Below, piece after piece: positions 8,959 through 10,553 of a stretch of DNA of 27,432 bases. How positions within the stretch are numbered: position 1 is the first letter of the stretch; every line of letters begins with the position of its first letter. The stretch lies in IMG/VR virus record IMGVR_UViG_2695420763_000018; one strand, given 5' to 3'. Position numbers and translations under genes: made by a program. This DNA comes from a virus. Its lineage: Duplodnaviria > Heunggongvirae > Uroviricota > Caudoviricetes. The notes beneath the pieces were generated by a model that saw nothing but the letters and a program-made list of their open reading frames with translations, was not told the origin of the DNA and made no database searches.

Positions 8959-9534
8959 TTTTCCTCACATATGTCATATAGTAAAGGATTATATATACCG
9001 TTGTTTTGGACGCTCAAACAGCGAATCAGATCAAATAAAACGCACATTTGTTAACATTTACACAAAGTCTGCGTGGGATATTCTGAAAGAATATCCATAA
9101 TGTGGAGAGAATCTATTGAAGTGCATGGTGCCGGGTGCCTCCCGGTGAACAAAATGTTCGTGATACCTGTCGGCGACAGAAAAGGTTAATGGTATCACCC
9201 CACCGCACAGGGGGATTCACCATGCAGGAGTTTTCTTAGCAAACTCACTGCGCGCCCGGCAACTCCCAACCACATAAAATGCGGAGTTTGTGGCATTTGT
9301 GCATATAACTCGCAGGAATTATCTTAAAAAACTGATGTCGATCCGGATTAAAAAGAAGCAGGTCATCATCAGATGACTGGAAAAAAGGAAAACAAAAAAT
9401 ACTCATCATACAGTTTTGATTGCAGGGATGAGCCTGCTATGCACAATATAAGCAAGATAAAAATATGCAGGCATATTATTTCGGATTTTGTTATTAACAC
9501 AACCTTTTTAATAATCATTTGGCATACAATAAAC

Positions 9535-9566
9535 CAGCCCAAAAAGAACCGCCTAAACAGGCGGTT
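9535..9566 (-). terminator. intrinsic terminator within the late-gene leader
   Basis: Stem aaccgcc (9547-9553) and ggcggtt (9560-9566) around a 6-nt loop; on the minus strand followed by CTTTTTGGG. Confidence 0.6.
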
Positions 9567-10445
9567 GGTCAATACAAAGGATGCTTCGTCTTTATTATAG
9601 TAATCTGAGGCGTCGGGTGTCTTGTATCAGACAACATATTGTCCCGCTAAACAGCGAATTACAAACCACCCGGCGATGATCTCTCATCTCATTTTATATG
9701 AGTTGACGACATCAGGATAACGCATCATCATCCCCTGCCAAGGAATATCAAAACTCCCGCCAGCAATGTGTTATCACAATATTGTAAAAAAAACACAGCA
9801 CCGAAACTATAACTGGTCTCTGTTATAGTTTGGGGTAGCGATAAAGGAGCTCAGGAGACCTTTCCCCACGAAAAAACGCCAGTGCTGCAAAACCAGAGCC
9901 TCATCCACGTCATCAGCCTGGAAGGCTGAGGTAATAGCCATTATACGATACCCGCATATGGTACCAACTATCGCGCTCGAACAAATAAACTACTGATTAG
10001 ATTTCAAATCATGAGCCATACCGACTAAACCAGATCTACATTAGTTCTTCGTGTCAGCTCTAATCAAACAATAAAAGCCGCTCTCCCCGGAACTGGCACC
10101 GATACTAAAAAGGAAGAAAAGGCACTTCAATCGTAATAATCCGAAAGTGGTTCCAGTTAGGTTAACTTATTTCCTGAGTTACATTTTTTATTAAAACAAA
10201 CCGTCCTGAATTCCATCCACCATTTATTTCTGTCATTACAACAGGATAAAGAGCCTTAACCAAGATTCAGGCCGTGAAAACTGATAATATGCTAAAATAA
10301 TCATAACAAGCCGCAGGATAAACTAACAAGTCGTGTAAAAGATGTGTATTCTGCGCAAGTTACACGCCAATATGCGAATTCTCCACTTAAGCAAACAGAA
10401 AGACCAGTTGCCCAACTAGCAGCATTCTCCCCTGCTTTCCTGACG

Positions 10446-10476
10446 TAAAAAAACCGCATTAAGCGGTTTTTTTACG
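10446..10476. terminator. bidirectional intrinsic terminator about 80-110 nt downstream of Q (tR'-like)
   Basis: aaaaaaaccgc-attaa-gcggttttttt: GC stem flanked by A7 and T7 runs, so a hairpin plus U-tract forms on either strand. Confidence 0.7.
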
Positions 10477-10553
10477 ATGTCCATGTCTGCAATCCGCCTC
10501 GCGATACAGCTTTGCGAAGCATAGCAAAATTGAAGCAGTTTATACGTAAGAAA

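Follow-up and report, generated by a model that had tools for sequence, protein, structure and literature searches.

What fills the 1,595 nucleotides (nt) that separate a late antiterminator gene of the Q type from the next gene of a lambdoid prophage? The question was raised by IMG/VR record IMGVR_UViG_2695420763_000018, a 27,432-nt stretch of a Caudoviricetes virus (hereafter, the window), in which a Q-like gene is followed by a long gap, a pair of TolA-like lipoprotein genes, and the lysis genes. All relevant genes of this locus lie on the minus strand, and their order is described here from high to low coordinates. An earlier reading made from the letters of the window (hereafter, the sequence-only reading) described the gap as an AT-rich late leader, poor in open reading frames (ORFs), with two terminators inside it and a third beyond the lipoprotein genes, and suggested that it could be a deletion scar or could encode small RNAs. 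Our analysis largely supports this interpretation, with refinements. The gap is very probably not empty DNA but the late-operon leader of a Rac-type prophage, mosaic in structure and ordinary in kind yet crowded.

Setting and content of the gap

The bounds of the gap were confirmed against the flanking stop codon and ATG (Table 1). Its poverty in ORFs was likewise evident: the longest ORF within it encodes 75 amino acids (aa), versus 79 ± 20 aa in shuffled sequences, and seven small ORFs (44 to 75 aa) gave no PHROG matches. Protein genes in the gap were ruled out on these two grounds. RefSeq has no annotation of the gap in near-identical genomes. The description as AT-rich holds in a weaker form, because the G+C content is lower than that of the window (40.9% versus 45.0%) but reaches only the 13th percentile of same-length windows. 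Beyond the locus, near-identical Escherichia coli chromosomes run on into trkG and ynaK, and the prophage is therefore of the Rac type; matches to the RalA and sok antitoxin RNAs elsewhere in the window are consistent with this assignment.

Hairpins followed by U-runs were found at each of the three sites that had been proposed as terminators (i.e., T1, T2, and T3). We compared the locus with 80 close relatives from IMG/VR, 38 loci from species-representative genomes (numbered loci and classes carry the prefix L), and several annotated phages. The comparison lends strong support to T1 as a terminator and good support to T2. Weak Rfam matches to Thr_leader, AgrB, OrzO-P, and Trp_leader were driven by the terminator hairpins and were set aside.

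Table 1. Coordinates of the gap, its elements, and other features of the window
Feature	Position	Strand	Description
DUF1367 gene, truncated	11626-11982	minus	Upstream of ybcO; only profile positions 1-113 of 198
YbcO-like nuclease gene	11093-11383	minus	Upstream of Q-like gene
Q-like antiterminator gene	10554-11096	minus	180 aa, GTG start; DUF1133/AntQ family
Gap	8959-10553		Between TGA of Q-like gene (10554-10556, minus) and ATG 8958 of first TolA-like lipoprotein gene
Candidate late promoter pR'	10529-10557	minus	-35 TTGATT, 10557-10552; 17-nt spacer; -10 TTCAAT, 10534-10529
-10-like TATGCT	10523-10518	minus	Candidate sigma-dependent pause element; sequence match
Conserved initial transcribed sequence (predicted)	within 10495-10523	minus	TCGCAAAGCTGTATCGCGAGGCG, together with TATGCT
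Near-palindrome GCTTCG.CGAAGC	10507-10520	minus	Directly after TAnGCT in several genera
T1 (tR')	10446-10476	minus	Intrinsic terminator, AAAAAAACCGC-UUAAU-GCGGUUUUUUU
Rare 562-nt segment	9834-10395	minus	Missing in common Rac variant
tRNA-Thr pseudogene	9959-10039	minus	Decayed: 5-nt insertion in anticodon arm, broken acceptor stem
tRNA-Gly(UCC) 5' fragment	9910-9955	minus	First 46 nt; cut after anticodon arm
STnc100/PasD-like remnant, 3' part (putative)	9537-9622	minus	Ends in T2
T2	9566-9547 (stem), tail to 9537	minus	Stem, then CUUUUUGG
STnc100-family small RNA element	9069-9255	minus (late-gene strand)	Rfam RF02076, 86.6 bits, E = 1.6e-17
Moron promoter-like site	8988-9017	minus	TTGAGC-18-TATAAT; 10/12 consensus; 30 nt 5' of ATG 8958
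TolA-C-terminal-domain lipoprotein gene pair	8530-8958 and 7984-8379	minus	Pfam PF06519, 2e-23 and 1e-14; PHROG 5772
T3	7832-7858	minus	Stem 7858-7841, 7 bp with 5 G-C pairs, then UUUUAUAUU
Holin gene (phage 21 S type)	7517-7732	minus	Pfam Phage_holin_2_1, 4.5e-35; first lysis gene
RalA antitoxin RNA	25698-25876	minus	Full-length, 225 bits (Rfam)
sok antitoxin RNA	13397-13567	minus	101 bits (Rfam)
ParB_N-domain protein gene	4365-4826	minus	Adjoins glycosyltransferase gene
TET-associated glycosyltransferase domain protein gene	3212-4420	minus	PF20691, 3e-34

A probable late-control cassette directly downstream of the Q-like gene

The name Q given to the gene at the head of the gap agrees with all of the family searches. 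Its product matches Pfam DUF1133 over its full length (3e-106) and Phage_antitermQ weakly (1e-5), and it matches PHROG 753, "anti-termination protein Q-like" (7e-79). In addition, a five-sequence profile of the DUF1133 family matches the phage 21 Q structures 6P18/6JNX (E = 8e-7). These matches support its identification as a Q-type antiterminator remotely related to Q21.

The Q gene and the 59 to 62 nt that follow it (10553 to 10492 in the window) are common to all 80 IMG/VR relatives, regardless of downstream content. Past 10492 the relatives diverge, with a G+C stem and T-run remaining at the corresponding place in nearly all of them. The common part contains the putative promoter TTGATT-17-TTCAAT, which had been put forward only as a weak candidate and whose -35 hexamer overlaps the TGA stop of the Q-like gene. 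Homologous positions are occupied by TTGACT-16-TATAGT in Providencia, TTGACA-16-TAGTAT in Edwardsiella, and TTGACT-16-TAAATT in Serratia. The weak candidate therefore appears to sit where distant relatives have good, near-consensus promoters, and the isrK promoter of Salmonella must have an equivalent location. Anchoring the alignment on an invariant TAnGCT revealed a layout shared by type-I and Klebsiella-type relatives, which consists of a -35 hexamer (TTGAYW), a spacer of 16 to 17 nt, a -10 hexamer, 4 to 7 nt, TAnGCT, and CGnGAAGYT. The last two motifs are present in nearly all relatives of these types that were examined (E. coli, Xenorhabdus, Proteus, and Edwardsiella) and absent from the Salmonella-type cassette (L092 and L095), L098, and L116. 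The Salmonella-type cassette has the same -35 hexamer and a -10 hexamer, without TAnGCT.

A transcription start equivalent to that of the Salmonella small RNA gene isrK (see below) is predicted at about 10521, and TATGCT, the form of TAnGCT in the window, would therefore lie at about +1 to +6. By the definition of Yin, Kaelber, and Ebright (bioRxiv 10.1101/651190), a Q cassette is expected to have a sigma-dependent pause element at that initial transcribed position. TATGCT is probably such an element for sigma70-RNA polymerase, judging from its sequence and place.

The first hairpin downstream, T1, has a folding energy of -19.7 kcal/mol (z score, -5.9). A terminator follows the Q stop codon in 58 of 61 distinct relatives, at a median distance of 80 nt (range, 38 to 93), compared with 1.2 of 61 in shuffled sequences, and the stems vary among relatives (CCGC/GCGG, CCCGC/GCGGG, CCACC/GGTGG, and GCCTCGC/GCGGGGC). 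The terminator previously placed about 80 nt past Q is therefore a family-wide feature, and T1 corresponds to tR'. The accompanying claim that T1 is bidirectional is correct for the window, where both strands fold equally, but not for the relatives, many of which lack the A-tract that causes it.

Transcription terminated at T1 would produce a leader RNA of 76 to 79 nt (about 10521 to 10444). The 79-nt form folds at -30.1 kcal/mol (z score, -4.2), with a 5' hairpin followed by T1. We do not claim that the 5' hairpin is conserved; it is visible within subgroups, but the RNAalifold consensus has just 3 bp and no compensatory pairs. The near-palindrome GCTTCG.CGAAGC in the same region has homologues in L088, L089, L100, L106, L110, L112, L117 to L119, and L122. 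RNAalifold gave no consistent helix for the near-palindrome region, and the motif may therefore be a DNA site, perhaps a Q-binding element, or else may form a small RNA stem.

Likeness to antQ-isrK and other Q cassettes

A similar arrangement exists at the antQ-isrK locus of Salmonella Gifsy-1. Hershko-Shalev et al. (PMC4825925) described antQ directly upstream of isrK, an isrK promoter whose products are a short terminated RNA and a transcript that reads through, interference of the AntQ protein with termination, and action of IsrK in trans. A Salmonella homologue with 84% identity to the Q-like protein of the window is encoded directly 5' of a bona fide isrK. Where the Q protein of a Salmonella or E. 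coli locus is 84 to 88% identical to that of the window, an Rfam isrK match (RF01394; 67 to 76 bits, with a gathering score of 50 bits) starts 33 nt past the stop codon; the isrK matches in L092 and L095 score 67 to 81 bits. The window shares with antQ-isrK the Q family, the (candidate) promoter overlapping the stop codon, and a predicted terminated RNA of about 75 nt that would begin about 33 nt past that codon. The two loci differ in that the promoter-proximal sequence of the window is of another type, and the window has nothing like the downstream orf45-anrP/C4-like module of L092 and L095. Moreover, the isrK model gives the leader RNA just 21.6 bits (10447 to 10520), below the gathering score, and this RNA is therefore a positional counterpart of isrK and not a member of that family.

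In L092 (4575 to 4776) and L095 (4588 to 4768, and also 1290 to 1476), from an E. coli and a Salmonella genome, matches to the C4 antisense RNA follow isrK downstream of antQ, and the L092 match also overlaps the Rfam "c4-a1b1" target motif. Because of these matches, isrK-orf45-anrP looks like a P1/P7-type c4-ant immunity module located at a late promoter.

The order of elements in the window (i.e., Q gene, candidate promoter, -10-like hexamer, terminator within about 100 nt, and lysis genes) is also that of the Q cassettes of phages lambda, 82, and 21. Phage 21, to whose Q protein that of the window is remotely related, is especially close. Unlike these cassettes, the window has a Q protein of the separate Pfam family DUF1133, a noncanonical -10 hexamer, a near-palindrome after the -10-like hexamer, and two further terminators together with a 1.5-kb leader before the first late gene.

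Small RNA elements and relics of cargo in the leader

An STnc100-family element was detected in the downstream part of the gap; the match covers model positions 1 to 206 and exceeds the gathering score of 47. Each of the seven STnc100 matches observed here is on the late strand, with tR' on one side and the lysis genes on the other, and the Klebsiella spallanzanii element is directly 5' of the holin gene. The window thus has the same Q-to-lysis placement of an STnc100/PasD small RNA as Shiga toxin (Stx) phages, JLK-2012, mEp460, and the Klebsiella prophage. Comparison of four copies (window, mEp460, JLK-2012, and Klebsiella prophage) revealed two invariant blocks, GGTGAATCCCCCTGTGCGGnGGGG and TCACCGGGAGGCACCCGGCACCA, around an unrelated center. 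The 9-bp closing helix has compensatory changes at three of its nine pairs relative to the Klebsiella copy, in this set of only four sequences. The copy in the window departs from the family in its unique central region and in its terminal hairpin, which is discussed below. A fourth terminator after the element (9074 to 9040) was weak (z score, -0.97) and was rejected.

In enterohemorrhagic E. coli (EHEC), 11 STnc100 copies were transcribed without induction, one of which was verified by northern blotting (PMC5331693). One STnc100 copy lies 75 nt past stx2 (PMC12370729). Relatives of the family include the Hfq-bound PasD RNAs, which have many partners (bioRxiv 10.64898/2026.05.13.724894).

The window and mEp460 (L005, 3492 to 3682) are identical from 9149 downward. 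The 5' conserved block (to about 9246) is also common to both and the STnc100 center is unrelated, which places a recombination joint inside a conserved STnc100 block. Conserved small RNA blocks coincide here with recombination joints between phage modules.

A second element of this kind may once have ended at T2. The 82 nt ending in T2 (9622 to 9541) are 72 to 76% similar to sequence found 3' of tRNA-Gly in sister phages, and T2 in relatives has an identical stem, a different loop, and a longer U-run. The homologous stretch of phage vB_EcoS-683R6 (L003, 4199 to 4395), which includes the motif CGGGAGGCACCCG, aligns from one end to the other with Rfam STnc100; the score of 22.9 bits is below the gathering score, and the E value (0.009) applies to a small search. 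In our reading, a second STnc100/PasD-like unit, now decayed, has T2 as its terminator. The second of the three proposed terminators is thus present and conserved in relatives, with the refinement that it appears to be part of a decayed small RNA unit.

The sequence-only reading had further claimed that relatives carry cargo, such as toxin genes or tRNAs, in this slot. Related phages bear this out. The slot contains intact tRNA-Thr(UGU) and tRNA-Gly(UCC) genes followed by the holin gene in vB_EcoS-683R6; tRNA-Asn, -Thr, and -Gly genes followed by tciAB, STnc100, and an esterase gene in JLK-2012; and the pertussis-like toxin genes eplBA in Rac-SA53. Other classes of relatives have membrane proteins or other ORFs in the slot. 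Stx phage 933W likewise has tRNA genes, ileZ-argN-argO, downstream of Q.

In the window, a tRNA-Thr relic aligns to the intact tRNA-Thr(UGU) of vB_EcoS-683R6 and JLK-2012, and a tRNA-Gly fragment matches the tRNA-Gly of many phages and the host glyT gene, with the similarity stopping after GCTGATGA. The slot 3' of Q, the Thr-Gly order, and the 3-nt spacer are the same as in vB_EcoS-683R6 and JLK-2012, but both copies in the window are dead. ARAGORN found no tRNA in the window, and the Rfam tRNA model gave no match between 7700 and 10700 even at an E value of ≤5. By these alignments, the relics mark lost cargo. Both suggestions of a deletion scar and of small RNAs are therefore borne out, by the dead tRNAs and by STnc100, respectively.

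Both relics lie in a rare 562-nt segment, across which the common Rac variant (L002) joins 10396 to 9833. Only 3 of 5,426 complete E. coli genomes contain the 393 nt unique to this segment. An exact 22-mer probe of the segment found no IMG/VR contigs, and a metagenome scan for it returned one contig, which is the same prophage at 99.5% identity. The evidence bearing on insertion versus deletion of the segment consists of 2 extra bases shared with class L069. Of the 5,426 E. coli genomes, 449 carry the common 875-nt part of the leader, at 98 to 99% identity and in every case without annotation.

A probable lipoprotein moron ahead of the lysis genes

Morons are promoter-gene-terminator cassettes, such as those of bor and lom in lambda, and the lipoprotein block appears to fit this classical layout. 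A promoter-like site, two genes (the first with a GAGG ribosome-binding site), and a putative terminator stand between the leader and the holin gene, and this arrangement is absent from sister phages. The block from 9246 to 7744 is missing from 683R6-type relatives, in which homology resumes at 7743, 11 nt before the holin ATG, and mEp460 carries the region from about 9149 to 7516, including the lipoprotein genes. T3 (-13.0 kcal/mol; z score, -3.4) lies inside this portable module, 100 nt before the holin ATG (7732). The third proposed terminator thus lies after the lipoprotein genes, as the sequence-only reading had it, and is best read, from its pattern and context, as the terminator of the lipoprotein moron. 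The holin gene is annotated as essD in near-identical genomes and is followed by lysozyme and Rz genes.

The moron of the window differs from other lambdoid morons in its cargo, a TolA-domain lipoprotein pair. The two lipoproteins are paralogous and consist almost entirely of the TolA C-terminal domain. One possible role for them is to act as decoys for colicins that depend on TolA or for filamentous phages.

Proposed course of late transcription and alternative explanations

We propose that polymerase starts from the candidate pR', whose -35 hexamer overlaps the stop codon of the Q-like gene, and that TATGCT would then pause sigma70-RNA polymerase so that Q could load. Without Q, transcription would end at T1 and give an RNA of about 76 nt. 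With Q, it would continue past all three terminators and into the lysis genes (holin, lysozyme, and Rz). The moron's own promoter would be active in the lysogen, with T3 keeping moron transcription out of the lysis genes, and Q-modified polymerase coming from pR' would pass T3. Under this scheme, Q antitermination would be mandatory for late expression, as the sequence-only reading had argued.

Several observations weigh against this proposal. The -10 hexamer TTCAAT lacks the nearly universal A at position 2, and a generic promoter scan does not list TTGATT-17-TTCAAT. No Q-binding element could be assigned by sequence, the conserved parts being the spacer and the near-palindrome, and the leader RNA has the low isrK score given above. 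T3 and the moron promoter occur only in near-identical copies, and the moron reading therefore rests on pattern and context. The STnc100 element of the window has no evident promoter upstream, and an AU-rich hairpin without a U-run replaces the GC-rich terminator hairpin of the model. A generic scan of 7400 to 11200 found four terminator-like sites, versus 2.9 ± 1.7 in shuffled sequences, a number that does not exceed chance; we therefore relied on the comparison with relatives. Finally, the DUF1367 gene is annotated as intact (600 nt) in near-identical genomes and ends early in the window, a sign of prophage decay that leaves some doubt about function in this strain.

The weak -10 hexamer bears on the position of the late promoter itself. 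The true promoter could instead be an extended -10 element, TGcTATGCT (10526 to 10518), with no -35 hexamer, a start at about 10511, and a terminated RNA of about 65 nt; TTGATT...TTCAAT would then be a Q-binding region or have no role. TAnGCT is the most widely kept hexamer, it retains the critical T, A, and T at positions 1, 2, and 6 and varies at position 3, and both the window type and the Klebsiella type have a TG one base upstream, whereas TTCAAT makes a poor -10. However, many relatives lack this TG (Providencia, Edwardsiella, and classes L046, L106, and L113), and these have near-consensus -35/-10 pairs upstream at a spacing of 16 to 17 nt. The isrK start in Salmonella, 33 nt past the stop codon, also fits the upstream promoter, and a -10-like element just past the start is what is expected of a Q cassette (bioRxiv 10.1101/651190). 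We consider an extended -10 promoter unlikely.

Even less credence, in our judgment, is due to the idea that a decaying prophage has left the stretch as inert debris, in which hairpins past T1 are relics or chance products and regulation has been lost. The number of terminator-like sites, the dead tRNAs, the STnc100 copy without its terminator, and the truncated DUF1367 gene would all suit such decay, and the K-12 version of Rac has presumably lost the whole region. Nevertheless, the same Q cassette and lysis genes are found in phage records under virion-style names (vB_EcoS-683R6 and -673R7), 449 of the E. coli genomes keep the 875-nt common leader at 98 to 99% identity, and conservation of T1 and T2 extends to diverged relatives. 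These findings make debris a very improbable explanation.

A reading that complements the late-leader proposal and does not exclude it is that, in the lysogen, the leader serves mainly to supply small RNAs (i.e., the ~76-nt pR' RNA and STnc100) acting in trans on host genes, with insulation of the lysis genes being secondary. The action of the positional counterpart IsrK in trans (PMC4825925), the expression of STnc100 copies in uninduced EHEC (PMC5331693), and the many partners of the related Hfq-bound PasD RNAs (bioRxiv 10.64898/2026.05.13.724894) are in line with this idea, as are the conserved scaffold blocks around a variable center in STnc100. However, the middle of the pR' RNA is wholly different between close variants, and there is therefore no conserved seed. 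In addition, the STnc100 copy of the window is without an evident promoter or terminator, and no target is known. A primary role in trans is possible, although we do not expect it. The STnc100 element accompanies the lysis cassette across lambdoid phages with unrelated Q proteins. That an STnc100-type element could work in cis as a processing, stabilizing, or elongation-modifying module of the late transcript, instead of or besides acting as a trans small RNA, is a distinctly unlikely prospect.

Other features of the prophage

RalA and sok represent two RNA-based toxin-antitoxin systems in one prophage. Just beyond trkG lies the pair of glycosyltransferase and ParB_N genes, which may be DNA-modification cargo of the Rac prophage. 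We also considered a second Q gene, such as that annotated upstream in strain 13E0767, and rejected it; the ORF at the equivalent position (14816 to 15319) is unrelated to that protein and had no matches in Pfam, NCBIfam, or the PDB.

Implications for lambdoid late regulation

DUF1133/AntQ proteins are widespread in Enterobacterales prophages and are still labelled "domain of unknown function." The present locus offers a testable late-control map for this class of Q proteins, comprising a candidate promoter, a pause-like element, a terminator, and a predicted leader RNA of about 76 nt. In this map, the Salmonella small RNA IsrK occupies the classical pR'-tR' position of the DUF1133/AntQ cassette. 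For the annotation of E. coli, the STnc100-family RNA and the leader RNA would be two unannotated features carried by 449 of 5,426 complete genomes (about 8%). The accepted picture of lambdoid late regulation is unchanged; what the locus adds to it is further members, and further detail, of kinds already known.

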